Part shown: one piece after another, positions 45,418-64,000 of the stretch
Position numbering within the stretch: position 1 is the first letter of the stretch
How the letters are laid out: each line of letters opens with the position of its first letter
Source of the DNA: Phycisphaerae bacterium
GTDB lineage: Bacteria; Planctomycetota; Phycisphaerae; UBA1845
NCBI GenBank assembly: GCA_963666835.2
Contig: CAXXGO010000001.1
Location: forward strand, 384,001-448,000
Reading direction: 5' to 3'
DNA: 64,000 bases
Position numbers and translations under genes: made by a program
Notes under the pieces: generated by a model
Told to the model about the DNA's origin: nothing
Database searches by the model: none
What the model saw: the letters and a program-made list of their open reading frames with translations, nothing else

Positions 45418-45769
45418 GGGGGCGATTGGATTCGACCGGGCGAGAAGAAAGGAACGTTGCGTGCCGAGGTTGTCAGGTGGCCTCGTAAAAAACCTGGCGC
45501 TAACTTTACATGGCAACAATTCGTATGCCATGGCTGCCTAAAAGAAGGTAGCCCGTTGCGCGGAGGACGCCCACTACTCCGTGCAACGACGCTAGTGGGC
45601 TAGTTCCGGCGTGCGGCCAAGTCGCGCCGGAGCGAACCAATAACCTGGCTGGGGAACGCGGAAGCCTGTCGGCCGGCGTCCGCCGCCCCGAGACCCAAAA
45701 GACCGCCTACGCACGTAGAAGCGTCCCCGGATCCGTCGCGGGACGGGGGTTCGATTCCCCCCGCCTCCA
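45418..45769 (+). ncRNA. ssrA: tmRNA (transfer-messenger RNA)
   Basis: 5' GGGGGCG...GGATTCGAC. The 3' T-arm GGGGGTTCGATTCCCCC is followed by CGCCTCCA, giving an acceptor stem with G3-U wobble. Tag ORF 45512-45541 encodes GNNSYAMAA*. CCA is not encoded. Confidence 0.95.
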
Positions 45770-45941
45770 GTACGTAAGTCTCTGTAAACAGACGACTTAC
45801 GATCGATCGCCGGAACGGCGGGTACTCTCGCGGGTACTTCTTCCCGCTTTTCTGCCGCTTGTTCCGGCGCCTCGATCGAGTACAATCGGCACACTCGGTT
45901 TGCGGCCGACACACCTGAATCAACCCGAAAGGACAGGTGTG

Positions 45942-47138
45942 ATGGCCTCACTCGCCAAAGAAAAAGGCGCGATCTACCGCATCCACTGGAAGTTCAAGGT
46001 CCGCGTCGGCCCCCGGGCCGGCGAGACGATCGAGGGCAGCCACCAGCTCGGCCGCTGCACCAAAGCGGCCGCCAAGTCCCAGCTCCGCGACGTCGAAGAA
46101 TGGGAGGAACGAGTCAAGACCGGACGGCTCGTACCCGGCCGGGATTTCGGCGAGGTCTGCACCGCCTGGCTACGTGAACGGGAGCTGATCTGCACGGCCC
46201 AGACGTTGGAACGGACCGAGCGAGTCCTTAACCTGTACAAACGCTGGCGGCTGGAAGGCGGTCTCCCCTGCGGCACCGTGGTCGACGTGGCCAATCAGAC
46301 CGACCTGATCGCCTGGCGCGATCATCGCCTCGACTCCGAGGCCGGCCGTAAGACCGTCGCCAACGACCTCTCGACCCTCTCCGCGTTGTTCGAATGGTGC
46401 GTTCGCGAGAAGTACCTGCCGGACAACCCGGTCGAGCGGATCGCCCGGCCCCGGTTCATAACCCACAAAGAAGGTACGCCACTGACCCGACAGCAAGCCG
46501 GAGCGTGGCTGCGGTCCATCAAGCCGAGAATCGGCCGGAATGGTCACGGCCCGCGATCATGGGAGGAAGTCCGGCGCAAGCGTCAGCTAATCGTGTTTCT
46601 TCTGAACACCGGCCTGCGGAACGGGGAGCTCTGCGCTCTGAGTATCGAGGACTTGCGGATCGACGATGAAGAGCAGCTCGTCTACGTGATGGGCAAGGGG
46701 CTCAAGGAACGCTGGGTTCCACTCAACAAGTCGGCCCTCGCCGCCGCCCGCCTTCACCTGCGCACCCGAGGATGCCCGAAACGGGGTCCGCTGTTCCACA
46801 CGCGGGCCGGCACCCGGTACAACGTTCGGCAGCTGGCTAGTGAGATCGTCAAGACCGCCCGGGGTTACGACGAACCGATCGAAGCAAACCCGCACAATCT
46901 GCGGCACTCCTTCGCTACTTGGCTGGCGAGGTCCGTACCCGACGTCTCGATTGTCCAGAAGATCCTAGGCCACGAGAACGTCAACACGACGCTGAAGTAC
47001 TACGTCCACACGGGTGACCACGAGCTGGCACAAGCGACGGCCAGCCTTCGCGGTCGACGCCGAGAGAGCGAGACTAGGCAGGACCCCGATAGAGATGCGT
47101 TCCGGATCATCCCCTTTCCCGAGCGCCGCGTGAGTTGA
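45942..47138 (+). CDS. tyrosine recombinase/integrase
   Basis: Catalytic residues in TGLRNGEL (R), GKG (K), HNLRH (HxxR), LGH and LKYY (Y). Confidence 0.95.
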   Translation: MASLAKEKGAIYRIHWKFKVRVGPRAGETIEGSHQLGRCTKAAAKSQLRDVEEWEERVKTGRLVPGRDFGEVCTAWLRERELICTAQTLERTERVLNLYKRWRLEGGLPCGTVVDVANQTDLIAWRDHRLDSEAGRKTVANDLSTLSALFEWCVREKYLPDNPVERIARPRFITHKEGTPLTRQQAGAWLRSIKPRIGRNGHGPRSWEEVRRKRQLIVFLLNTGLRNGELCALSIEDLRIDDEEQLVYVMGKGLKERWVPLNKSALAAARLHLRTRGCPKRGPLFHTRAGTRYNVRQLASEIVKTARGYDEPIEANPHNLRHSFATWLARSVPDVSIVQKILGHENVNTTLKYYVHTGDHELAQATASLRGRRRESETRQDPDRDAFRIIPFPERRVS

Positions 47139-48527: not shown

Positions 48528-50146
48528 GCCTGATCACCCTCCGCCGGACGTGCATCTGTGCCGTCCTCAACACCCAGGCGCGCGCTGGGGTCCACGTCTG
48601 TTTCCGGGTTGGCGACCGGGTCTAAGCCGGGCGACCGGGCTGGCGACGCCCCGTCTTCGCCGTCCTCCCCCGGGCATTCAGGGGCTTCGGGTATGTCTTC
48701 CGGGTCGGGTAGCGTGAGGACGGTCACCTCAGCGATCTGCGTCTCGGTCCGGCTGTACCGGTGGGGTCGACGGCTTTCGTCCTTATCCACCAACCCGCAC
48801 GCCACCAAGGGCTTCACGCGGCGACCGGCTTGCTCTGGGCCGACCCCTAACGCCAGGGCCAAGTTGTCGCGCGTGAACAGTTTGGCAGGGAACTTCTGGT
48901 CAATAGTTTCCAACGTGGCACGCATCTGCCCGTCGATGAGTTGGAACGCATCCGCCAGCGGTTCGCGCATCAGATCCAGGAAGATCTGATAGTCGGTCCG
49001 GTCGGCAAGGACCGTCTTACGGCCATTAGAACACCGGATTCGTTTCTGTTTCTGCCGAAGGAAGGCCACAGCCTGGATGAAGCTGCCGACGTGGCCCATC
49101 GCCCGGCGCGCCGCCACTTTGTCGCATGGCAGTTTGAGCATGTGAGCCCAGGGGATGATCACCTCGACCTCCGGATCCAGAAGGCGCTGGGCCGTTTGGT
49201 GCACGAGCCGGATCCGTTGCTGTGCGGCGACGTCAGGGCCGCGCCCGGCAAGGCGGTCCTGCTCCGCACGGATGACCTGCTCTGTTTGTCGTTGTGCCTC
49301 GTTGACGGTCAGCATCAAGAGCCGAGTACGGTCTTCCTCGTGCACCGTGCCGGCCGTGGAGGTTTCGACGAACGCGATCGGGCCCTCTTGTGTAATCAGG
49401 ACAGTCGCGGGTCGTCCGTCCTCGCCTTTGATCGTTACGCATTTCTTCAGCTCGCCGTCGGCGATCATCTCCCGGAACGCTTTCGATCCGAATCTCGCCC
49501 GGTCGTGGGTGGGGTGCTCGCGCTCACGCTCCCCGCACGCTACGAACTTGTGCCGGAGCGAGCCCGCCGGAAGGTAGTAGAAGGACTGATCGGTAATATC
49601 GTGAGCCTTGAGGACGCCTTCCTCCGGCATCATCGAAGCGATAGTGTTGACGATGAAGCTCTTGCCCCCGCTGGACGCGCCGTGGACGTGAGCAGCCAAC
49701 GGATTCCGGAGGAATCGGCTGGTGCCGATTATGTAGATTGCCAGAGCGAGCCGAGGTTCACCCGCGACTCCGAGAAGTGCGACGTCAGCCGCGATACGGT
49801 CCATCAGGTCAGGCGCGCGAAGCATCGCCTCCGCTTCCTCGAGTACCTCCGGCGGCGTCTCGGCAAGAGCGGCCTCTCGTGGATCGGCGGAATCGTCGGG
49901 CTTCTTGGCGGCCTCCGTGGCCGCGTCCATCGCCTCGGCGGCTTTCTCCAGGACGACCGCGTCCACGTCGGCTGGTGGGCAATCGATAATCGGCGCGACG
50001 CGGTTCACGTACTGCGCGCGAGCTCTAGCGCTTCCCACGTTCAACTCGTCAATATCGACGACCTTTCCCTCGCGCTCGGCAGTCAGCCGGATCTTGAGAC
50101 TACCGTTGAGGCTGAGGACCTCCGGCGTGATAGTGGGGGTGCTCAT
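48524..50146 (-). CDS. P-loop NTPase, primase-associated helicase/replication protein with C-terminal winged helix
   Basis: Walker A GASSGGKS, C-terminal FTRDNLALALGVG...RRVKPLVACGLV, and coupling to the primase. Confidence 0.75.
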   Translation of the reverse strand: MSTPTITPEVLSLNGSLKIRLTAEREGKVVDIDELNVGSARARAQYVNRVAPIIDCPPADVDAVVLEKAAEAMDAATEAAKKPDDSADPREAALAETPPEVLEEAEAMLRAPDLMDRIAADVALLGVAGEPRLALAIYIIGTSRFLRNPLAAHVHGASSGGKSFIVNTIASMMPEEGVLKAHDITDQSFYYLPAGSLRHKFVACGEREREHPTHDRARFGSKAFREMIADGELKKCVTIKGEDGRPATVLITQEGPIAFVETSTAGTVHEEDRTRLLMLTVNEAQRQTEQVIRAEQDRLAGRGPDVAAQQRIRLVHQTAQRLLDPEVEVIIPWAHMLKLPCDKVAARRAMGHVGSFIQAVAFLRQKQKRIRCSNGRKTVLADRTDYQIFLDLMREPLADAFQLIDGQMRATLETIDQKFPAKLFTRDNLALALGVGPEQAGRRVKPLVACGLVDKDESRRPHRYSRTETQIAEVTVLTLPDPEDIPEAPECPGEDGEDGASPARSPGLDPVANPETDVDPSARLGVEDGTDARPAEGDQA

Positions 50147-51033
50147 CTCTTACGGGTCCTTTCCGGTGCATACCAACGGTGGCGTAGTGACAGGGGTGGA
50201 GAAACGATGCTCGGCGGTCGTTGGCATGGAGCCTCCGCGACGCGTTGCAGCAGTACGTCCCGGGTCAGCCCAGATCGGACTTCCTCGCGAATGTCATTGA
50301 ACGGCGGGCCGGGGAAAATGATCTTCACGGTGCCGGCTTTGGAGAGGAGCGCATCGCGTAACGACTCGGCGCCCTCGCGGCCGGGTCGGTCGTTGTCGGC
50401 GACGATGACGACGTCGCGGCCGCTGACCAAGTCCAGGCAGAAATCGATGCATTGCCCGCATCCCGGTCGGCCGATTACCGTCACACCCAAGTCGAGCAAG
50501 GCGGCGGTGTCCGACTCACCCTCGGCGATGAACAGCATCCCCTCGTCGGGTCTGTTGTTCGGCAGGAACAGGCCGTTGCGCGAACCCTTGACCGCTCGCT
50601 TCCGGCCATCCGGGAAACGTCGACGAATGCCAATGATGGCACCGCCGGCGGCTCTCATGGGGAAGGTGTAGGCGTGTCCGTCCCAGCCGACGCCAAGATC
50701 AAGTAGAGAGGATTCACAGACTCCAAGCTGTCCCGCAAGCATCGCCAGGCGGCCCGGTCGCAGGTTCTTGGTGAACCTCGAATACATAGCCGCCCAATCC
50801 GGTGGGGTGATTCGAGGGCGTTCTTTGGGCCGGGCGCTATGGGGAGGGCGCCGGTTACGGTCGAGCGGGCCAAACACGACGCCACGATCGCGGCATCGCT
50901 TGACAATCCGCCAGCCGGGCGGCGGTTCGCTGACCTTCATGCATCGAACCACATCACCCGATCGGCTGCACCATTTGGTGTACCCACAGATCTCGCAGGG
51001 CTCCGTCCGACAGACTGCTTTCCATTGGCTCAT
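50143..51033 (-). CDS. primase-like protein (Zn finger plus TOPRIM)
   Basis: N-terminal CEIC...WC...C, and TOPRIM motifs IAEGESDTAAL and VADND. Confidence 0.85.
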   Translation of the reverse strand: MSQWKAVCRTEPCEICGYTKWCSRSGDVVRCMKVSEPPPGWRIVKRCRDRGVVFGPLDRNRRPPHSARPKERPRITPPDWAAMYSRFTKNLRPGRLAMLAGQLGVCESSLLDLGVGWDGHAYTFPMRAAGGAIIGIRRRFPDGRKRAVKGSRNGLFLPNNRPDEGMLFIAEGESDTAALLDLGVTVIGRPGCGQCIDFCLDLVSGRDVVIVADNDRPGREGAESLRDALLSKAGTVKIIFPGPPFNDIREEVRSGLTRDVLLQRVAEAPCQRPPSIVSPPLSLRHRWYAPERTRKR

Positions 51034-52278: not shown

Positions 52279-52629
52279 CTACACCTCATCAAGCCGCTTC
52301 TCTTCCTCCTCTCGAGCTTCCAGCCACGGGGGCTTCGGGCTTGCCCGGCCTTCGACGGCGGCATAGATCGCATCCGCCAGCGGTTTGGCATTCTTCAGCG
52401 GGATGACGAAGAAACGCCCCGGGCGAGACCGTCGCTTCGGTCGGCGATACTTAGAGCAGCTTTGAAGGCGTACATAGGCGCGCCCGCCATGCTCTCGCCG
52501 ATGCACAAGAACCGCATGTCGATCGTCCCAAGGCACCACATCCACCAGCCGGTCGATCGTGTCGAGGATGCTCGGCATAGTCATTCGTTCGGGAATGTGC
52601 ATGCTGGCGTCCATGCCTCGGATAGCCAC
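52279..52629 (-). CDS. PC4-like putative ssDNA-binding protein (paralog 2)
   Basis: VPW...VLVHRREHGGRAYVRL...RFFVIP...LADAI, homologous to 53254-53625. Confidence 0.55.
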   Translation of the reverse strand: MAIRGMDASMHIPERMTMPSILDTIDRLVDVVPWDDRHAVLVHRREHGGRAYVRLQSCSKYRRPKRRSRPGRFFVIPLKNAKPLADAIYAAVEGRASPKPPWLEAREEEEKRLDEV

Positions 52630-53253: not shown

Positions 53254-53625
53254 TTACGTAAACGGCCACGAATCCATGTCGTCAACATCGTCTGCCGCGT
53301 CCTCATCATCCTCCGACAGATCGAACCACTCTTCCTCCCAGGCGTAGAGCCTATCGGGGCTGGGATTCGTCACGCCTTCGGCTGCAGCCCGAATCGCGTC
53401 TGCGAGGGCCGCGGCGTTGTCGATCGGGATCACGAAGAACCGGTCGGACGGATACCATACCAGGAGCTTGCGGTGCTTGTTCCACGTTCGAAGGCGGATG
53501 AAGGTACGTCCCTGGTACTGACGACGATAGACGAGCACCGTCCGCCACTCCCCCCACGGAACCGCAGCCATGAACTCCTCGATCGTCTCGGAGCTGCTTG
53601 GTTTCGTTGTTTCGACGTGTGCCAT
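53254..53625 (-). CDS. PC4-like putative ssDNA-binding protein with acidic tail (paralog 1)
   Basis: VLVYRRQYQGRTFIRLRTW...WYPSDRFFVIP...LADAI, ending in DDEDAADDVDDMDSWPFT. Confidence 0.6.
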   Translation of the reverse strand: MAHVETTKPSSSETIEEFMAAVPWGEWRTVLVYRRQYQGRTFIRLRTWNKHRKLLVWYPSDRFFVIPIDNAAALADAIRAAAEGVTNPSPDRLYAWEEEWFDLSEDDEDAADDVDDMDSWPFT

Positions 53626-54376
53626 ATGCGAGTCCCTTCGCCCGGCCAGCTTGCGGCGCGATGACGCGTGCTGTCCGTGGCCCGCGTTCGCGTGATCCAA
53701 GGGCATGTTATCCCAGCTACCCCGGACGCAAGCAATAAGCCGCGAGCGCGGCCGGCGATTACTCTCCACAGGACGACATCGCCGCCGGCATGGACGCGGC
53801 GGGACCAAAGCTCGCCACGCGCCGAGCCGGGACTTACGCACAGCGGCGGTGCGTGATTAGTGTGCATGACCGTGCACGCACCGAATGCACGCTCAAGTGC
53901 CTGTATGTGCGAGAGTTACATCAATCGTGCATGGGTCTCGAAGAATAAGCGGCTCCGGCGAGTTTGGAAGCACGAGGCGCGTTCCTGCAAACCCGGGCGG
54001 TCAAAGACCAAGCCGCAAACCGCCTATCCCGGAAACGCCGGAGGCACCGAAGTGGTTGTCGGGCTTGGTGTCGCTGCATCCCATCGCCACGTACGCCTAG
54101 ACGGCGCATGCCGGCTTCGGGGGCATGGATGGCCCACCCAGCCGAGATCGTTGAAGGACGCGTGTTCTGACGCGTCTAACGCATGTAGGAGGCGACGCCG
54201 TTCTTGGTGAGATCCGGCCGCGAAGCGAGCGTCCCGATGTCCTCAAAACGCCTCCGAGTTGAGCAGATGCCCCCGGAGGACCTGCTAGACTCCGGTTGAC
54301 TCCCCGAGTCGAATCCGCTAAAGATTCAATCTAGCTGACATCGGCGCAATTCATTCCCTCGACGGAGGAGCAGACG

Positions 54377-56302: not shown

Positions 56303-59300
56303 CTACTCCGAATAACGCAGTCTGGACTCGAGCTTGCGCTTGACGGCCGGCGGCGGATCGCACTGACGCCCCTGGCGGAACGAACGGATTGCAGCCGCGA
56401 CCTGCTCGCAGGCGAGCTGGGCGTCGCCGAGCAGTAGCCACGCTTCGGCATTCCGCGGCTCGTACCTCGTGGCCGAACTTGCAGAAACCACCGCGGCGGC
56501 GAATTCACCCTGGGCGAGCTGCACCCGGCCCCTCACAAACCAGGCGTGTCCGTACCCCGGGAACACGTCCGTCGCCCGCTTCGCGTAATCCCCGGCCCGG
56601 TCAAGCCTCTGGGCCCGCTCGTGGACCAGAGCGGCAAGGACGAGGGCCTCGCCGTTGTCCGGATTGTCCTCGAGAACATCCTCCAGCCATGGAAGGGCCT
56701 TCTCCGCCGAACGGCGGTCCCCGGCGAGCATTGTCCGAGCCAGGCCTAGCCGGGCCGCGGTGTGGTCTTCGTCGACCTCAAGGGCCCGCTCGAAGTCTTT
56801 CCGGGCGGAACGCGTCCAGCCCTTCTTCCGCAGCTCGGCGTAGCCGCGAAGAACGAGAGTCTCCGCGTCGCGCGGATGGGCGTCCAGAATCTCCGTGCAG
56901 GCCTCGATGGCCGCATCGATCTTCCCGTCCTCGAGGTCGCGACACGCTCTGGCGAACAGATCCCGCTCGTTCTGCGGACGGGATTCGGCCGGTGGAGTAT
57001 CTCCCCGCAGCCCAGCCGCAATGTCGCTCGCCATGTGATCGGGAATCCCGGAGACGTGGCCGGACCACCGGGCTTGCCGCACCATGTTCCCGGTGGAAGC
57101 ATCGACAATCCGGACGAGGATCGAGACCATGCCCTCATCGAATCGGAACTCGCCATCGATCAACAGCTCGGCGCCGACGTGGCGAGCAGCGTCCGCCTTG
57201 TTCCCTCCGGCCGTCTCCAGAGCCCCAGCGACAGTCGCCCGCTCGACCACCGTACAAAGGTCTGCATCCCGCAATCCCAGGTAGAGTGCTTGATCGACAA
57301 GCGTCCCGAGGTGCCCGGATGGTGGCACCCCGGCGTCGTTGTTGACGGAGAACAACGCGCAGGTCTGCGCTGTGTAATCCACCGCTTCTTCGGACTCGAC
57401 CGCAGGCTCACCGGTCGCGACCGGCTCGCCCGCGCCGGCCTCTTCCGTCGATGTCACGTCGGCCGCGACATCCGTCTCCGCCACAACCCGGAGCCCGTAG
57501 GTGTAGCCGCGGAAGCCCGGCCTGCCCCTGCTTCGATACGCACAACGGCAGAAGCTCGCAAGGTCGAACCCCGAGCCGCCCCGGTGAACACGGTACATAC
57601 CGCTGTCAGGACCGGTCGGATCCCGGTCTGGAGAATCGGCATAATAGTCCTCTCCGTACCAATCACCGCACCACTCCCAGACGTTGTCGTGCAGGTCATA
57701 TAGGCCCCACGGGTTGGGCTGATTCACGCCCACTGAATGAATCTCAGACGCGGAAATACCCCGACACCAGGCGTGGTCGTCCAGACGGCCCTTCGAGTCG
57801 CCGAATGAGTACGCCGTCGTAGTGCCCGCTCGGCACGAGTACTCCCACTCCGCCTCCGTAGGTAGCCGGGTCGTTCGACCAGTCCGCGCCGACAGCTTCC
57901 GGCAGAATTCCTGGCAGTCACTCCACGATACCTTCTGTACCGGATGATCGGCGCCCGTGAACCCGGACGGAACGCCTCCCATAACCGCCCGCCACTGCGC
58001 CTGCGTTACCTCGTACTTGCCCAGGTAGAACGGCTGGCTGATTCGGACGCGATGCAGCGGGTCCTCGTCACTATCGCTGTTGCTCGACCCCATCAGGAAC
58101 TCGCCCGCCGGAATCAATACCAGCTCCATCGTCACCCCGCTGCCCAAATCGAGGGTGAGCGTCGAGGCGGGATCATACTGGCGTCCACTCTCCTCCCTCA
58201 GCCGATCGGACACCTCCGGTGTGCTCACAGCCTTCTCAGGTACCCCCGCCGCAACCCGAAACCCGACGCTGCAGTTCCGTTTGTCCGGCGTGCCTATGAC
58301 ACGATACGCCGAGCGCAGGCTCACACCGTGGATGTCCAAGGCCCCGCCCCTAAAAGCGCTTCCTCCGGTGTTTCTCGACCCCACCGGATCCACCTGGACA
58401 CCGGACGGGTAAGCGCCCAGCCAGTCTGCACACCACTCGTAGACATTGCCGTGCATATCATGCAGACCCCACGGGTTGGGCTGCTTCGTACCCACCGCGT
58501 GCGTCACCCCCCCGGAGTTACCTTTATGCCACGCGTAATCGCTCAGGCGAGCCGTCGAGTCTCCGAACGAATACGCCGTCGTCGTCCCGGCCCGGCACGA
58601 GTACTCCCACTCCGCCTCTGTCGGAAGCCGAATCGGATGCCCCGCGTGCCTGGACAGCCGCCGGCAGAACTCCTGAATGTCATTCCACGACACCCTCTCG
58701 ACCGGACGGTTGTCGCCCTTGAACTTCGACGGATCACTCCCCATCACCGCGCGCCACTGGGCCTGCGTTACCTCGTACTTGCCGATGTAGAACGGGCTGC
58801 TAATCCTGACGGGATGGGGCGGCCTCTCGCCACTGCCTCCGTTGTTCGAGCCCATGGTGAACTCGCCCGCAGGTATCAACACCAACTCCATCGTCACCCC
58901 GCCGCCCAGGTCGATGGTGCGCGTTGGGGCTAGATCCTGGCGACCTCCGATCCCATCCTCCAGTCGAACCGCCTTCGTAGCCCCGACCTCGGGGACCGGC
59001 GGTTCCTCCTTCGCTTCGTCATAATCCACGGTCCCGGCACCATCGGAGACTACCGCCGGATCCTCGATAGCGGTGATACGATCATGCTCGTCTAGCGCCT
59101 CCGGGTCATCAGGGAATAATGCCAGTGCCACGCGGACAGCCCTCAGTCCCCGGTCGCGCTGGGCATACGTTGTGCAATCCCTGGCCGTGACCATGTTCCG
59201 CTCGTATCTCTCGCGCCTCTTCCGTTGCTTAACGACCGCCGGATCTTCGATAGCCTCGATCCGATCGCGCTGGAGCAACGCCTCCGGGTCGTCGGGGTAT

Positions 59301-60763
59301 AGAGCTAGAGCATCCCGTACGGCCGCCAGACCCAGTTCACGGCGGGCGTACGTCGTGCAACCGCGGGCCCTGCCCATCAGTTGCTCGTAGGTCCGTTGCT
59401 TCTCGCGGTCGGCAGCAATCGCGGGGTCGACCATATTCCCGATACGCTCGCGCTCGGCCAGCGCCTCCGGGTCGTCCGGGATCAAGAGCAAGGCCTCCCG
59501 CACCGCCGCAAGACCCGCCGTGCGATCCGCATACGATGTGCACCCTTTCGCCACAGCCAGCAGCTCATCAAACCGGGCGAGCTTCTGTTGGCCGGGATCA
59601 ACGGCCGCCGGTAGCTGGTCAGCTTCTTGCCCTTCGTCAGGAAGCGTCGCCACCGGGCTTGTTACCGGGGCAGGACTCACCTGCGAGCCGGGAGTACCTG
59701 ACCCGCCCCCCGTAATCGCCCAGATCCCGACGGCGGCCAGGACGACCACCGCCGCCAGGCCGATCCACCAGGCCGCGCGGGACGGCGAGTGGCCGGCTAT
59801 GGCGCTCAGACTCGCGCGGGCCTCGGCGGCTTCTTGGTACCGACGAGACGGATCGGCTTCCAGAGCCCGGCTGATCCAAGCATCCCACGGGGAAAGCTCG
59901 GCATCTTCTTGTCCCGGCAGACGAGTGATGCCCTCCGGCAATCTACCCATCAGCATGCGATAGGCCATCAGACCGACGGCGTAGAGATCCGTGCGGTGGT
60001 CCACGGTGGTCCCGGGCTTCTTCTGTTCGGGGGCCATGTACGACCACGTGCCGATCAGCGCCTGCGTGCTCGTACCGGCCGGAGAACCGCCCTCGTCGGG
60101 CATATCCGACCCGGCTTGGCCGTCGATGGTCGGCGCCGAGCCGATCGAAGTATCTCGCCCGCTCTTGACATCCATATCGCCCGCCGCACCCGGAATGGTC
60201 GGAGCGGAACCCAGCGAGAGGGACTCGCTGATACTGGTGAAGATCCGGTCGCGAAACATCGCCTCGCCGACGATCCGCACCAGGCCGAAATCCGCGATCC
60301 GGGCCATGGGGCCGGACGGGGTCTGCTCTATCAGCACGTTGGCCGGCTTGAGATCGCGGTGGACAACACCCTCGTCGTGGGCGTAGCTGAGCCCGTCGAG
60401 GATTTGCCCGACCAGCCGAGCGGTCGTGCGACTGTCGAGTTTGGCGCCGTGGTCCTTCAGGTAGCGGTGGAGGTCCATCGGGCCGTCGTCGTCGCCGACG
60501 TAGGCCATGACGACATACGGCCGACCGTCCTGGTCGAGATCGCTGTGCTCGATCTTGAGCAGATGGGGGTGGTCCAGCTCGGCCTGTACTTGGGCCTCTT
60601 TCTTGAACCGGTCGAGGGCCGACTCGCTGCCGTCGGTGTGCAGTACCTTGATCGCCCGGCGAAATCCGAGGTCACGGTGCTGGCACAGATACACCGCGCC
60701 CATCCCCCCACACCCCAGCCGCCGCAGGACCTTGTACGGACCAATCTGTTGCGGGTCAGTCAT
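56303..60763 (-). CDS. membrane Ser/Thr kinase: kinase-TM-helical repeats-2x FGE-sulfatase (CLec)-CsgG-like-TPR
   Basis: GCGGMG, AIK, HRDLKPAN, DFG and APE kinase motifs; a TM helix; two LIPAGEF...RLPTEAEWEY...G(F/L)RV domains; C-terminal TPRs. Confidence 0.92.
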   Translation of the reverse strand: MTDPQQIGPYKVLRRLGCGGMGAVYLCQHRDLGFRRAIKVLHTDGSESALDRFKKEAQVQAELDHPHLLKIEHSDLDQDGRPYVVMAYVGDDDGPMDLHRYLKDHGAKLDSRTTARLVGQILDGLSYAHDEGVVHRDLKPANVLIEQTPSGPMARIADFGLVRIVGEAMFRDRIFTSISESLSLGSAPTIPGAAGDMDVKSGRDTSIGSAPTIDGQAGSDMPDEGGSPAGTSTQALIGTWSYMAPEQKKPGTTVDHRTDLYAVGLMAYRMLMGRLPEGITRLPGQEDAELSPWDAWISRALEADPSRRYQEAAEARASLSAIAGHSPSRAAWWIGLAAVVVLAAVGIWAITGGGSGTPGSQVSPAPVTSPVATLPDEGQEADQLPAAVDPGQQKLARFDELLAVAKGCTSYADRTAGLAAVREALLLIPDDPEALAERERIGNMVDPAIAADREKQRTYEQLMGRARGCTTYARRELGLAAVRDALALYPDDPEALLQRDRIEAIEDPAVVKQRKRRERYERNMVTARDCTTYAQRDRGLRAVRVALALFPDDPEALDEHDRITAIEDPAVVSDGAGTVDYDEAKEEPPVPEVGATKAVRLEDGIGGRQDLAPTRTIDLGGGVTMELVLIPAGEFTMGSNNGGSGERPPHPVRISSPFYIGKYEVTQAQWRAVMGSDPSKFKGDNRPVERVSWNDIQEFCRRLSRHAGHPIRLPTEAEWEYSCRAGTTTAYSFGDSTARLSDYAWHKGNSGGVTHAVGTKQPNPWGLHDMHGNVYEWCADWLGAYPSGVQVDPVGSRNTGGSAFRGGALDIHGVSLRSAYRVIGTPDKRNCSVGFRVAAGVPEKAVSTPEVSDRLREESGRQYDPASTLTLDLGSGVTMELVLIPAGEFLMGSSNSDSDEDPLHRVRISQPFYLGKYEVTQAQWRAVMGGVPSGFTGADHPVQKVSWSDCQEFCRKLSARTGRTTRLPTEAEWEYSCRAGTTTAYSFGDSKGRLDDHAWCRGISASEIHSVGVNQPNPWGLYDLHDNVWEWCGDWYGEDYYADSPDRDPTGPDSGMYRVHRGGSGFDLASFCRCAYRSRGRPGFRGYTYGLRVVAETDVAADVTSTEEAGAGEPVATGEPAVESEEAVDYTAQTCALFSVNNDAGVPPSGHLGTLVDQALYLGLRDADLCTVVERATVAGALETAGGNKADAARHVGAELLIDGEFRFDEGMVSILVRIVDASTGNMVRQARWSGHVSGIPDHMASDIAAGLRGDTPPAESRPQNERDLFARACRDLEDGKIDAAIEACTEILDAHPRDAETLVLRGYAELRKKGWTRSARKDFERALEVDEDHTAARLGLARTMLAGDRRSAEKALPWLEDVLEDNPDNGEALVLAALVHERAQRLDRAGDYAKRATDVFPGYGHAWFVRGRVQLAQGEFAAAVVSASSATRYEPRNAEAWLLLGDAQLACEQVAAAIRSFRQGRQCDPPPAVKRKLESRLRYSE
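57479..57592 (-). repeat. internal DGR variable-repeat-like segment (sister of 63667-63780)
   Basis: Gapless 114-nt alignment with 21 mismatches, 18 of them at codon positions 1 or 2. Confidence 0.7.
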
Positions 60764-60819
60764 GCTACTCACTCAACCTCGCATGCCGCACTCATTGGCG
60801 AGCGGTGAAGGAAACCGGG

Positions 60820-63417
60820 CTAGGGGGCCCCGGCTACAACACGGAACCCGACATCGAAGCGGCAGAAGTCGGGCGGGACCCCCACGCGGTCCGCAGAACG
60901 GGAAGTGTGGATTCGGCCCGCGAATTGGCCGCCACGCGCCACAAAGCGGCCCTCGCCATACTGCGGTCCGCGCGGGTCGATTTGTGAATCGGACGGGTAC
61001 CGGCCGTAGATATCCGCGCACCACTCGCACACGTTCCCGTGCATGTCATACAGACCCCAAGGATTCGGTTGCTTCTCACCAACTGGGTGAGCCTGGTTGC
61101 CGCTGTTGCTGTCGCACCATTCGAATGAGTCAATCCGATCGGGGGTGTCGCCAAACGAGTAGGCTGTCGTCGTGCCGGCCCGGCAGGCGTACTCCCACTC
61201 CGCTTCCGTTGGAAGACGAAACTCACGTCCAACCCGCCGCGAAAGCTCTCGACAGAAAGCCGTTGCGTCTTCCCACGAAACGGCGCGCATCGGGTGGCGA
61301 TCACCGTATCCCCTCAACCCCCAAGCCCCTTTCTTCTTGGCACGTTGCTGACGCAAGGTCGTGCCTGTAACGGCCTCCCATTGCGCCTGCGTCACTTCGT
61401 ACTTACCCATGTAAAACGGCCGGCTAATCCTCACCCGATGTTGCGGGCCTTCATCATCCTGACGGCCTGCTTCCGACGACGGCGAACCCATCATGAACTC
61501 ACCCGCCGGGATCAACACCAGCTCCATTGTCACTCCGCCACCGAGGTCGATCGTCAACGTCGGATCGGGACCATAGTACCCTTGGATCTTCTCCTTCAAC
61601 CGAAGGGCCTCGGAGTGGCCGGGATCGAGCACTAACAACTCCTTGAGAGCCTGCAACGCCGCCCTCCCGGTGGCTTCGCTATCGTTCGCCTTCGCCTCCC
61701 GCAACAACCCGGAGACCCGCTCACGCCGATCCCGGGCCGCACGCTCCTGAGGGGACTCTAGCGACTCCAAACGCCCACGCTCAGCCAACGCCGCCGAATT
61801 GGAAGGGTACAGTTCCAGGGCCCGACGAATCGCCGACAATCCCCTGTCACGATCCGGGTACGTCGTGCAGCCTCTGGCAGTGGTGAGTAGCTGGGAGAAC
61901 CTGCCCCGTTTCTCCCGTTCGGCAACCACCGCCGGATCCTCGATTCCGGCGATACGGGTTCGCTCCGCCAACGCCGCCGCGTCGTCAGGGTACAGAGCCA
62001 GAGCCTCACGCAAGGCCGTCAGACCCCGATCGCGGGAGGAATACGCCGTGCAACCCTTGGCCGTGGCAATTAGCTGCTCGTACTGCTGCCGCTTCTCGCG
62101 CTCGGCAACGACAACCGGATCCTCGATCCGCCCGATACGCTCCCGCTCCGCGATCGCTTGAGGGTCATCGGGGAACAGAAGCAACGCCTCCCGCACCGCG
62201 GAGAAACCCCTGTCACGATCCGAGTAGGTCGTACACGCCTCCGCAATGGCCAGCAGTTCATCGAATCGCGCAAGCTTCTGTTGGCCGAGATCAACCACCT
62301 CCGGGGGAGATTCAGCTTCTCGCCCGTCGTCAGGAGGAACCACCGCCATCTTACTAGATACCGGTGGCGAATCCGCTAGCTTCTCGGAAGTGCCCGACCC
62401 AACGCCCGAAATCGCCCACAACCAAACGGCCGCAAGGACCACCACGGCCGCAAGGGCCAGTATCCGACGACGGCCGCCGCGGCCGGTCGCGCGGAGGTCG
62501 CTCAGTAGTCCGGCTGCCGAGGCGTAGCGTTCCCTGGGGTCCTCGGGGAGACATCTGTCGACGACAGCGTCCCATCGCGTCGGCAGGGCGCGAACGACCC
62601 GGGACGGGGGCTTCGCCCTCGCCGTGGGCCGCTTGCCCGTGAGCAGTCGGTACACCACTACCCCGAAAGAGTAGATGTCCGTGCGCTCGTCAATCTGGCC
62701 GGTGCCTTCGCCGCGCTGCTCCGGGGACATATAGTCGTAGGTGCCCAGAATGCTAGAGGCGCTGCTCGTGCGGCGGCTGCCGCTTCCTTCCGCGGGGATC
62801 GTGGCCGCGGCGTCGAGGGAATCTAACGCGCCGTCCGGGGATGGCGAGTGCAGCGTCGGACCGCTGCCCAGCGAGTGCTGCATCGTCGAGTGGATCTGCG
62901 AGAGAATGAACTCGCTCCCGATCGCCTTGGCCAGGCCGAAGTCGGTCAGCTTCGCATCGCCATCGGCGTCGATCAGGATGTTGGCCGGCTTGAGATCACG
63001 GTGGATCACGCCCCGCTCGTGGGCGTACTGCAGCGCCTCGGCGATCTGGATGGACCACTTCCGCACTTTGGCCTCGGGCAAGCGGCCGTCCGGCTGCTGC
63101 TTGAGGTGCTCGTGCAGGCTCAGCGGCTTGCCCTCCGGTCCGGTCACGTAGTCCATGACCAGGAAGTACACCCCCTCGGCCTGGCTCATCTGGTGAACCT
63201 GCACGATGTTCGGATGATGCAGATCGGCCATCACCCGGGCCTCGTCGTAGAATCGGGCGACGAACCCCTTATCCTGCGCCAGCCCGGCCGGCAGGATCTT
63301 CAGCGCGTACTTCTTACGCAGGTGAACGTGCTCGGCCAGATAAACCTCGCCCATCCCACCCGCGCCGATAGATTCCACGACCCGATAGTCGCCGAGTTGT
63401 CTGTCGATGAACGTCAT
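60820..63417 (-). CDS. membrane Ser/Thr kinase: kinase-TM-helical repeats-FGE-sulfatase (CLec)
   Basis: GAGGMG, ALK, HRDLKPAN, DFG and SPE kinase motifs; a TM helix; a C-terminal FGE domain. Start set at MTFID (63417). Confidence 0.92.
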   Translation of the reverse strand: MTFIDRQLGDYRVVESIGAGGMGEVYLAEHVHLRKKYALKILPAGLAQDKGFVARFYDEARVMADLHHPNIVQVHQMSQAEGVYFLVMDYVTGPEGKPLSLHEHLKQQPDGRLPEAKVRKWSIQIAEALQYAHERGVIHRDLKPANILIDADGDAKLTDFGLAKAIGSEFILSQIHSTMQHSLGSGPTLHSPSPDGALDSLDAAATIPAEGSGSRRTSSASSILGTYDYMSPEQRGEGTGQIDERTDIYSFGVVVYRLLTGKRPTARAKPPSRVVRALPTRWDAVVDRCLPEDPRERYASAAGLLSDLRATGRGGRRRILALAAVVVLAAVWLWAISGVGSGTSEKLADSPPVSSKMAVVPPDDGREAESPPEVVDLGQQKLARFDELLAIAEACTTYSDRDRGFSAVREALLLFPDDPQAIAERERIGRIEDPVVVAEREKRQQYEQLIATAKGCTAYSSRDRGLTALREALALYPDDAAALAERTRIAGIEDPAVVAEREKRGRFSQLLTTARGCTTYPDRDRGLSAIRRALELYPSNSAALAERGRLESLESPQERAARDRRERVSGLLREAKANDSEATGRAALQALKELLVLDPGHSEALRLKEKIQGYYGPDPTLTIDLGGGVTMELVLIPAGEFMMGSPSSEAGRQDDEGPQHRVRISRPFYMGKYEVTQAQWEAVTGTTLRQQRAKKKGAWGLRGYGDRHPMRAVSWEDATAFCRELSRRVGREFRLPTEAEWEYACRAGTTTAYSFGDTPDRIDSFEWCDSNSGNQAHPVGEKQPNPWGLYDMHGNVCEWCADIYGRYPSDSQIDPRGPQYGEGRFVARGGQFAGRIHTSRSADRVGVPPDFCRFDVGFRVVAGAP

Positions 63418-63563
63418 GGGCAGTTTCTGCCTTTTGGTCTTTGGCACGACAGTCGCAAATCGCCTCTGGGACCGCAAGATGTCGAGCGGGCGACACATCC
63501 CATCCCGCCGCGACCCAATCGCCACAGGACCTTGTACGGACCGATCTGTTGCGGGTCAGTCAT
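63414..63563 (-). pseudogene. vestigial kinase N-terminus (49-aa ORF)
   Basis: MTDPQQIGPYKVLWRLGRGGMG is nearly identical to the start of the 60763 kinase, then diverges. Its TGA overlaps the ATG at 63417. Confidence 0.7.
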
Positions 63564-63601
63564 GCTTGCCACTCAACTTCGCACGCCGCTATCAGCGGCG
63601 A

Positions 63602-63660
63602 CCAGGGGCTCCGCCCCTGGACCCCGGGAAAAGAGAAAAGAGTTAAGGGGAAAAGGGTAA
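63602..63660 (-). promoter_or_regulatory. putative DGR IMH-region pyrimidine tract and hairpin
   Basis: Minus strand ttacccttttccccttaactcttttctcttttccc, then CCAGGGGC-GGA-GCCCCTGG (8-bp stem, 3-nt loop, 63602-63620). Confidence 0.7.
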
Positions 63661-64000
63661 AGTCCCCGCCACAACCCGGAACCCGAGGCTGCTGCTGCGG
63701 AGGCCCGGCCTGCTCCTGATGCGATCCGCACAACGGCAGTAGTGAGCGAGGTAGATCCACGAGCCGCCCCGGAGAACACGGTATTTGCCACTACCAGGTC
63801 CGGTCGGGTTCGTACCCGGAGAGCTCGCATAATAGTCCTCTCCGTACCAGTCACCGCACCATTCCCAAACGTTCCCGTGCATATCATGCAAACCCCACCC
63901 GTTAGGCTGTTTCGCTCCCACCGAATGCGTCTGCTTCCCGGAGTTGCCCGTGTACCAAGCATGGTCGCCCAAGCCCCCCGAAGAGTCTCCGAACGAGTAC
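63643..64000 (-). CDS. 3' end of an FGE-sulfatase (CLec) domain protein, putative DGR target; start lies beyond the window
   Basis: PNGWGLHDMHGNVWEWC...RVLRGGSW...CRCADR...LGFRVV, with NNC codons at the variable positions. Confidence 0.88.
   Translation of the reverse strand, partial: YSFGDSSGGLGDHAWYTGNSGKQTHSVGAKQPNGWGLHDMHGNVWEWCGDWYGEDYYASSPGTNPTGPGSGKYRVLRGGSWIYLAHYCRCADRIRSRPGLRSSSLGFRVVAGTLPFSP

Follow-up and report, generated by a model that had tools for sequence, protein, structure and literature searches.

Does an array of receptor-kinase genes with hypervariable lectin-like heads still diversify, or has its set of heads become fixed? The question is raised by a 64,000-nucleotide stretch of DNA from a Phycisphaerae bacterium (GenBank assembly GCA_963666835.2, contig CAXXGO010000001.1, positions 384,001 to 448,000 of the forward strand), here called the window. 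A preliminary description, made from the letters of the window, had proposed a mobile sensor system in which kinases fused to C-type lectin-fold (CLec) domains are diversified by a diversity-generating retroelement (DGR). In such an element a template repeat (TR) is copied by a reverse transcriptase (RT), with mutation at its adenines, into the variable repeat (VR) of a target gene, next to an initiation of mutagenic homing (IMH) site. We followed the genes along the whole contig (C1; the window is C1:384001-448000) and through the assembly, which is of metagenome type and comprises 6.02 Mb in 7 contigs at a completeness of 92%, with many repeats of 85-92% identity. The locus is probably, though by no means assuredly, a row of DGR target genes in tandem that has lost its mutator cassette by deletion and whose repertoire is now fixed.

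The array spans 31 kb (C1 440.3-471.6 kb, ending at C1 471,587). The window covers one of its ends; about 23 kb and five further CLec genes lie beyond the window end. Seven genes encode a kinase, a transmembrane (TM) segment and a CLec domain (g441, g445, g447, g450, g454, g466 and g469, named by their C1 position in kb), and one encodes a zinc ribbon and a CLec domain (g464). Together these eight genes, all open frames, contain nine CLec domains. The three co-oriented genes with four CLec domains, also classed as formylglycine-generating enzyme (FGE) domains, were correctly described for the window: they lie on the minus strand at 56303-60763, 60820-63417 and, with a 3' end, 63643-64000. The succession kinase-TM-stalk-CLec proposed for the two complete genes is present in both, but g441 carries two CLec domains, then a further domain and TPR, and its VR is internal. 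The features of the array are listed here in window positions unless marked C1; fixed sites of the VR are explained in the next section.

56303-60763, minus strand: g441, 1486 amino acids; kinase A, one TM segment at residue ~334, helical stalk, CLec domain outside the VR family, CLec domain with internal VR, further domain, TPR (Pfam; kinase motifs)
57479-57592, minus strand: internal VR of g441; 78/84 fixed sites, 5 departures outside the variable sites, not followed by a hairpin
60820-63417, minus strand: g445, 865 amino acids; kinase B, TM segment, stalk, CLec domain outside the VR family (57/84 fixed sites)
63414-63563, minus strand: kinase-A gene-start fragment, a short frame that ends over the g445 start codon
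63584-63620, minus strand: two GC-rich hairpins behind the g447 target, the first (63602-63620) with a GGA loop
63626-63684, minus strand: IMH-like invariant VR end, stop codon and pyrimidine tract (63626-63642); 2/21 sites variable just past the VR in five copies
63667-63780, minus strand: VR of g447 (variable core 63685-63756); 84/84 fixed sites, 16 variable codons
63643-64000, minus strand: 3' end of g447 (whole gene C1 447,643-450,216, 857 amino acids); kinase B, TM segment, three 61-residue helical repeats, CLec domain with terminal VR
C1 450,442-453,552, minus strand: g450; kinase A, TM segment, a different stalk, CLec domain, VR and hairpin
C1 453,741-~456,386, minus strand: g454; zinc ribbon, kinase, TM segment, CLec domain with internal VR, C-terminal extension
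C1 456,412-463,601, minus strand: SPFH/zinc-ribbon gene, two genes without Pfam match, a helix-turn-helix (HTH) gene and a zinc-ribbon-FHA gene
C1 463,602-463,942, minus strand: scar 1 (avd-spacer)
C1 463,967-465,601, minus strand: g464; zinc ribbon, CLec domain, VR and hairpin, without TM segment and without kinase
C1 465,557-465,897, minus strand: scar 2 (avd-spacer)
C1 465,973-468,564, minus strand: g466; kinase B, TM segment, stalk, CLec domain, VR and hairpin
C1 468,798-471,587, minus strand: g469; kinase B, TM segment, stalk, CLec domain, VR and hairpin

Variable repeats of the array

In a genome scan, a 114-nt VR segment matching 78-84 of 84 fixed sites was located in seven of the nine CLec domains; these sites were derived from six of the seven copies, and only the g441 copy (78/84) is an independent match. 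Outside the VRs the next best stretch of the genome reaches at most 60/84. The best CLec matches outside the array score 51-60/84. The terminal segments of all four window domains had been said to differ; two of the domains belong to the VR family (84/84 and 78/84), and the other two, the only array domains outside it, do not (57/84 and 56/84). Five of the VRs are terminal and two internal (g441 and g454).

The pattern of variation was compared between the VR and the upstream scaffold of the five hairpin-bearing copies. Variable sites of the VR fall at codon positions 1 and 2 in 27/29 cases, compared with 14/37 in the scaffold (Fisher p = 2.7e-6). Conversely, the third codon position is variable in 22/40 scaffold codons and in 5/38 VR codons (p = 1.2e-4). 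Between g447 and g450 there are 21 differences within 71 nt of the VR and 0 in 969 flanking nucleotides (561 upstream and 408 downstream). The 21 pairwise distances among the VRs have a standard deviation of 2.42, compared with 2.43 in column shuffles, and the seven VRs were shown to behave as independent draws from one template. The 16 variable codons allow ~3e17 possible sequences; no copy contains a stop, and all seven VR frames are open.

Adenine positions were assessed with five TR-like sequences from relatives, which had been found through avd: four TR-like copies from DGR loci and one unmutated VR-like copy in genome G016. Our 31 variable sites correspond to A at 23-26 positions in these proxies, compared with 2-3/41 fixed sites (p <= 4.3e-10). 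As a control, the intact relative G138 was used, in which all 16 TR-VR mismatches in the comparison fall at A. Mismatches could be placed at template adenines by proxy only, since no cognate TR was found in the assembly. The template predicted from the window agrees closely with the copies once their variable positions are masked by N. A test for a DGR-specific base bias showed few C at codon position 2 of our copies; the contrast with position 1 is probably due in part to one codon with a templated C, and the relatives gave p = 0.28. Among the fixed sites alone, depletion of A was not significant (p = 0.07 and 0.17).

The VR-like terminal segment of g447, its pyrimidine tract (63626-63642) and the GGA-loop hairpin (63602-63620) were all found where they had been placed. 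An invariant, IMH-like 3' end and a hairpin stand behind five targets, and the position of the invariant end suggests that it functions as the IMH. The 101-nt flank of g447 folds at z = -2.7 (4/200 shuffles equal), and the other three of our hairpin flanks at z = -2.2, -1.4 and -1.0. The GGA-loop hairpin was also found behind CLec genes of relatives. Departures at non-variable sites number 0-3 in the five hairpin-bearing targets, compared with 5 and 5 in the two targets without hairpin; the g441 VR is taken to be an older target. At the level of sequence the variation at the CLec ends is of DGR type, and the origin proposed earlier is supported by adenine-positioned variation (by proxy), IMH-like ends, hairpins and avd remnants.

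The missing mutator cassette

The preliminary description had suggested searching the genome for a TR next to a DGR RT and avd. A fixed-site scan, a scan for AAY-rich windows and BLAST with the cores of relatives revealed no cognate TR in the assembly. Likewise, tblastn and a hidden Markov model (HMM) of 10 related DGR RTs found no DGR RT except a 37-residue N-terminal fragment at C1 625,652. The 14 RTs of the assembly comprise 12 near-identical and one other group II intron-like RTs plus one fusion of 958 amino acids. A degenerate VR pattern gave 0 matches in genome contigs and 0 in metagenome contigs. The 88-residue Avd had no match in genome contigs and 3 distant or short matches in metagenome contigs, and a protein search for a close full-length Avd returned only the copy of our own genome among 8 candidates. 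With a 3-kb test stretch that excluded the window's own VR, no TR-like contig was recognisable among the matches listed.

At the array avd exists as truncated copies only, behind g466 and g464, both ending at codon ~87; a full-length avd of another lineage lies at C1 484525, with no RT behind it. The intact relatives G138 (same family) and G275 (same order) show the order target-avd-RT-TR-spacer, and their avd genes are 52-54% identical to ours. In the array, avd codon ~87 joins directly to sequence homologous to the spacer that lies ~100 nt behind the TR of relatives (74% over 82 nt, E 2e-6). Therefore, ~1.4 kb containing the avd end, RT and TR was deleted, and alignment with the relatives showed the avd-spacer junction to be a deletion scar of the cassette. 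Both scars have the same junction, and that of scar 2 is spanned with 0 differences by a contig of metagenome sample X5. The two scar copies differ at 21/264 avd nucleotides and at 6/90 nucleotides behind the junction (8%).

Of the components of a functional DGR, the VR and the IMH-like end with its inverted repeat are present, and the TR, the DGR RT and an intact array avd are absent from the assembly. The locus resembles a clade-5-type DGR target set, but with no TR, no RT and a truncated avd it is not a functional DGR. Its VR targets and cassette remnants, with no local core and with the scar occurring twice, are those of a degenerate or orphan DGR target locus. The word diversifying, used earlier in the present tense, goes beyond what the assembly shows: no TR or DGR RT was found in the assembly, the scar is present and two VRs are identical in other samples.

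Architecture of the receptor kinases

All seven kinase genes keep the Gly-rich loop, the catalytic Lys and the HRD, DFG and APE-like motifs, and each has one hydropathy peak (2.2-2.6) preceded by basic residues. The earlier reading of a receptor-kinase topology was thereby supported. By the positive-inside rule, the kinase is predicted to be cytoplasmic and the stalk and CLec head to lie outside the inner membrane. Six of the seven VR-bearing genes are single-pass kinase genes; the seventh, g464, has neither a TM segment nor a kinase.

The best PDB match of the CLec head is the DGR target TvpA (2y3c; E 5.8e-46), and FGE structures follow at E ~1e-30. The stalk of g447 consists of three 61-residue helical repeats with a conserved Cys (residues ~385-575, C1 448.4-449.0 kb). 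The repeat occurs in four array proteins and partially in a fifth; among 150 other genomes of the order it had no match. Single-sequence AlphaFold modelled the stalk with a predicted local distance difference test score (pLDDT) > 90 for residues 11-130, with the first two repeats folded at high confidence, and did not fold the CLec head. Foldseek with the stalk gave no match at E <= 0.001 and only weak TPR-like rows; the best ESM Atlas score, 0.83, is a lead only.

Binding of a ligand at the variable face would cluster the kinases and trigger Ser/Thr phosphorylation, which the neighbouring FHA protein may read out. With heads that are distinguished by as many as 16 variable residues, such a cell would possess a largely fixed panel of specificities. 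Among 17 island proteins PADLOC reported only generic matches to known anti-phage systems (MADS, PD-T4-6, BREX PglW), centred on the kinase domain or, in one case, on an HTH. A Pfam scan of 19 proteins revealed no NACHT, TIR, caspase, vWA or MoxR and no STAND or ternary-system domains. The neighbours of the array are SPFH, FHA, TPR and zinc-ribbon proteins.

A fixed repertoire or continued diversification

For the array with a deleted cassette we propose the following history. An ancestral module of CLec 3' end, IMH and hairpin would have been duplicated inside an island integrated at a transfer-messenger RNA (tmRNA) gene and grafted onto several N-terminal halves, namely several kinase types and a zinc-ribbon protein. 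Each copy would then have been rewritten by mutagenic retrohoming. Some of this rewriting was probably carried out in trans by a second core once the local one was deleted; this second core would later also have been lost. Fixation agrees with the VR of g464, which is identical in contigs of samples X1 and X2 from two studies, and with the variable core of g466, which is identical in an X5 contig reaching only 28 nt past the core on one side.

Several points weigh against a fixed repertoire. The assembly, in 7 contigs, is 92% complete, so the core may be unassembled. X1 is possibly the source sample of the genome, and the adenine comparison rests on templates of relatives rather than on the cognate TR. 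Between the flanks of g447 and g450 there are 0/969 differences, compared with 77 expected at the 8% rate of the scar copies. On the simple reading, identical flanks around independent VRs, with scars 8% apart, place the rewriting of one VR well after the loss of the local cassette, perhaps very recently, and this needs a second core. Flank identity is not a clean clock, because gene conversion among the paralogs occurs: in g447 and g469 a stretch of 120 nt is identical within otherwise divergent sequence. Two X5 contigs (130 and 125 nt; depth 2.1 and 2.9) agree with no copy among the seven. Their first base lies 30 nt ahead of the first variable site, and compared with g466 they show 22 differences, and 20 differences plus 2 gaps. 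They are a hint of extra alleles, of low depth and partly readable.

These last observations would also fit an array that is still diversified in trans, by a TR and an RT that escaped assembly, belong to another replicon or persist in a subpopulation with an intact cassette; we regard this as a real possibility but not as the probable one. The low number of departures in the hairpin-bearing targets, compared with those without hairpin, and the seven open VR frames in a 92% complete genome point the same way; so does PMC10907252, in which trans action is reported together with structural variants with intact cores, a subpopulation with an intact cassette being described for Thiohalocapsa DGR 3, 4, 5 and 7. 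This explanation has to account for assembly scans without TR or RT, for the lack of a close full-length Avd among the 8 protein candidates and in the contig scans, and for g464 and g466 VRs that are unchanged in other samples. Gene conversion blurs the flank clock on which it draws, and the two odd contigs are single and of depth < 5. It is very unlikely that repeats and junctions are chimeric or were polished together: the assembly type and its repeats would permit this, and no contig spans the whole 3-kb test stretch, but contigs from two studies match the g464 and g466 VRs and the scar 2 junction with 0 differences, and all eight CLec genes are open frames. Ordinary paralog divergence, by positive selection and gene conversion with no retroelement, is already largely refuted and highly improbable. 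Mosaic identity does show recombination, and binding loops can diverge fast, but the third positions are nearly invariant in the VR and variable in the scaffold, the variable sites coincide with template adenines, and remnants of avd and spacer are adjacent. We give practically no credence to a reading of the domains as FGEs fused to kinases. Pfam FGE-sulfatase matches and the FGE structures would suggest it, but TvpA is the better match, and when the heads are aligned to FGE, nothing in them corresponds to the first Cys of the C-terminal pair, a catalytic residue of FGE, whose place lies in the variable segment.

As for function, the receptors might, whichever history applies, serve immunity by sensing invaders and setting off defence or cell death, instead of sensing surface contact or the state of the envelope; we consider this rather unlikely. 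The island location, several specificities in one cell and the proposal that clade-5 CLec targets act as antigen sensors (PMC10907252) would agree with an immune role. The PADLOC and Pfam results, the SPFH, FHA, TPR and zinc-ribbon neighbours and the predicted extracytoplasmic heads argue against it. More doubtful still is a wider proposal, in which the array would be the bacterial counterpart of a clustered receptor-kinase immune family: a module duplicated onto kinases and hypermutated, its mutator discarded or kept by part of the population that re-seeds alleles, and foreign cells or phages recognised at the envelope. If that were true, core-less relics should be frequent and invisible to RT-based surveys.

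Comparison with known systems

Earlier publications already describe kinase-CLec targets, targets in tandem and DGR loci that have degenerated. Cyanobacterial kinase-CLec targets of clade 5, among 76 remote targets, are mostly cytosolic by prediction; one paralog retains traces of TR-VR homology, and the authors suggested that the machinery is removed once selection has acted (PMC7517822). Like our genes, they join a C-terminal CLec VR to an N-terminal Ser/Thr kinase and occur as several paralogs per genome, but they are dispersed and their DGR is intact, whereas here six single-pass VR kinases form one tandem array with a scar and no core in the assembly. For Thiohalocapsa, PMC10907252 describes degenerate loci, action in trans and an antigen-sensor hypothesis. 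The clade-5 DGRs of Thiohalocapsa PB-PSB1 resemble ours in CLec VRs that vary at codon positions 1 and 2, in degenerate loci and in the proposed sensor role. In contrast to our array, there is one complete locus per class there, and the targets belong to STAND and ternary conflict systems; no complete locus is present here, and the neighbours are of SPFH, FHA and TPR type. Eight tandem targets in Stenotrophomonas and seven non-adjacent targets in Treponema, with IMH and inverted repeats, were reported in PMC5758913. Such cassettes share with our array the many targets per template and the IMH with GC-rich inverted repeat, and their avd-RT-TR order (architecture B2) is that of our relatives, but RT and TR are kept, and in the accessible text the targets are not described as receptor kinases.

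TvpA of Treponema denticola (2y3c), the closest solved head by sequence, is likewise an FGE-type CLec protein with a C-terminal variable segment, but it is a surface lipoprotein without kinase (lipoprotein status from PMC10907252). The FGE-type CLec domains here also correspond to the clade-5 target type, that of the Treponema DGR, and most cellular DGR target clusters are membrane-anchored (bioRxiv 2020.04.01.020958). The spacer and the AAC bias are described in PMC12875486. PknB/PASTA receptor Ser/Thr kinases share the order kinase-TM-extracytoplasmic sensor, and the best NCBIfam kinase match is NF033483, below its cut-off; here, in contrast, a hypermutated CLec head sits on a helical repeat stalk instead of PASTA domains, and the genes are multi-copy and island-borne.

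We found no report of a core-less tandem receptor-kinase array in the literature, although kinase-TM-CLec targets from this group may be among those tabulated in PMC7517822, PMC10907252 and the Roux preprint. The ingredients are published; six natural receptor-kinase specificity variants, the mapped scar and the relic frequency given below bring open questions within reach of a test. Most cellular DGR targets are without known ligand or output. In this array six natural variants share closely related receptor-kinase scaffolds, autophosphorylation offers an output that can be measured and the FHA protein is a candidate reader; the ligand question thereby becomes testable by swap constructs. The locus also records the building and retirement of a DGR repertoire, with independent draws, module grafting and a mapped scar.

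Core-less relics in relatives and elsewhere in the genome

We tallied 41 avd loci, one per genome, after dropping four duplicates and our own genome and leaving out five further matches. An RT match lies behind avd in 21 and not in 20, of which 4 reach the contig end within 307 nt. There is thus no RT match in 16/37 evaluable loci, each with at least 1.1 kb of sequence behind avd. Core-less DGR relics are common in the relatives, and the tally suggests that some DGR-shaped genes of this group are missed when surveys are anchored on the RT. Direct joins of avd to spacer occur also in G325 and G523. A programmed site-specific deletion, considered after the G325 scar, was rejected because the avd breakpoints of the relatives scatter from codon 33 to 113.

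Wider flanks were inspected at 22 loci: in G198 a kinase-TM-stalk-CLec gene immediately precedes hairpin, avd and RT, and G362 has a kinase-CLec target without TM segment. In G198 (contig C225, L121 3992-9200) the TR is broken after ~20 nt by a repeated element. In G016 (contig C17, L014 1430-1760) a nearly unmutated, template-like VR copy is followed by a target-type end and by avd cut at codon ~80; this locus has no CLec gene upstream and no RT.

Our own genome contains a second family of CLec genes with a signal-like N-terminus, probable DGR targets, at C1 483.2-489.9 kb (L011 7200-13871), in what appears to be a second island stacked at the tmRNA gene. Relatives of this family lie at C5 64.5 kb, C1 1363 kb, C3 426 and 431 kb and C6 208.7 kb. 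Compared with a related template (G084), the gene ends of this family differ mostly at adenines (e.g. 19/28, 19/30 and 23/32). The full-length avd at C1 484525 is followed directly by part of another gene, with no RT or TR after it. A third relic is located at C1 624.6-625.8 kb, where an NTPase-like gene, presumably of KAP type by its motifs, contains part of a CLec domain that continues into the ~37 N-terminal residues of a DGR RT and then into unrelated sequence.

The other RTs of the genome are of different kinds. The twelve near-identical group II intron-like copies (96-100%) lie on C6 (10 copies), at C1 23.7 kb, where the copy is frameshifted near its end, and at C7 45 kb; by their similarity they appear to be a recent burst. 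The open frame of 958 codons at C6 1808095-1810971 has a central RT domain, and its N- and C-terminal parts look to us like Cas6 and Cas1.

Island context and neighbouring features

The mobile context noted earlier was corroborated, as the array lies inside a tmRNA-integrated island with an integrase. It is flanked by the tmRNA gene and integrase on one side and by a copy of the tmRNA 3' end at C1 473,453 on the other.

45418-45772, plus strand: tmRNA gene, the island integration site (Rfam RF00023, 162.9 bits)
45900-47138, plus strand: tyrosine integrase of the island (PF00589, E 3.5e-31)
C1 473,453-473,477, plus strand: att-like copy of the tmRNA 3' end; a second integrase gene (473,446-474,927) overlaps it with its end

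Copies of the tmRNA 3' end were found at C1 473453, 514383 and 605717, which suggests several islands in tandem at the tmRNA gene. ARAGORN called no genes; the tmRNA gene was recovered by Rfam. Primase-like and other small island genes follow the integrase up to ~51 kb, and the open reading frame (ORF) at 50143-51033 has a weak Toprim match. Two similar small minus-strand island ORFs, without PADLOC match, lie at 52279-52629 and 53254-53841. In the short frame at 63414-63563 the start of a kinase-A gene is joined to unrelated sequence, and copies of this segment precede g447 and g466. This frame is possibly a recombination scar only, or it may provide translational coupling with the next kinase gene.

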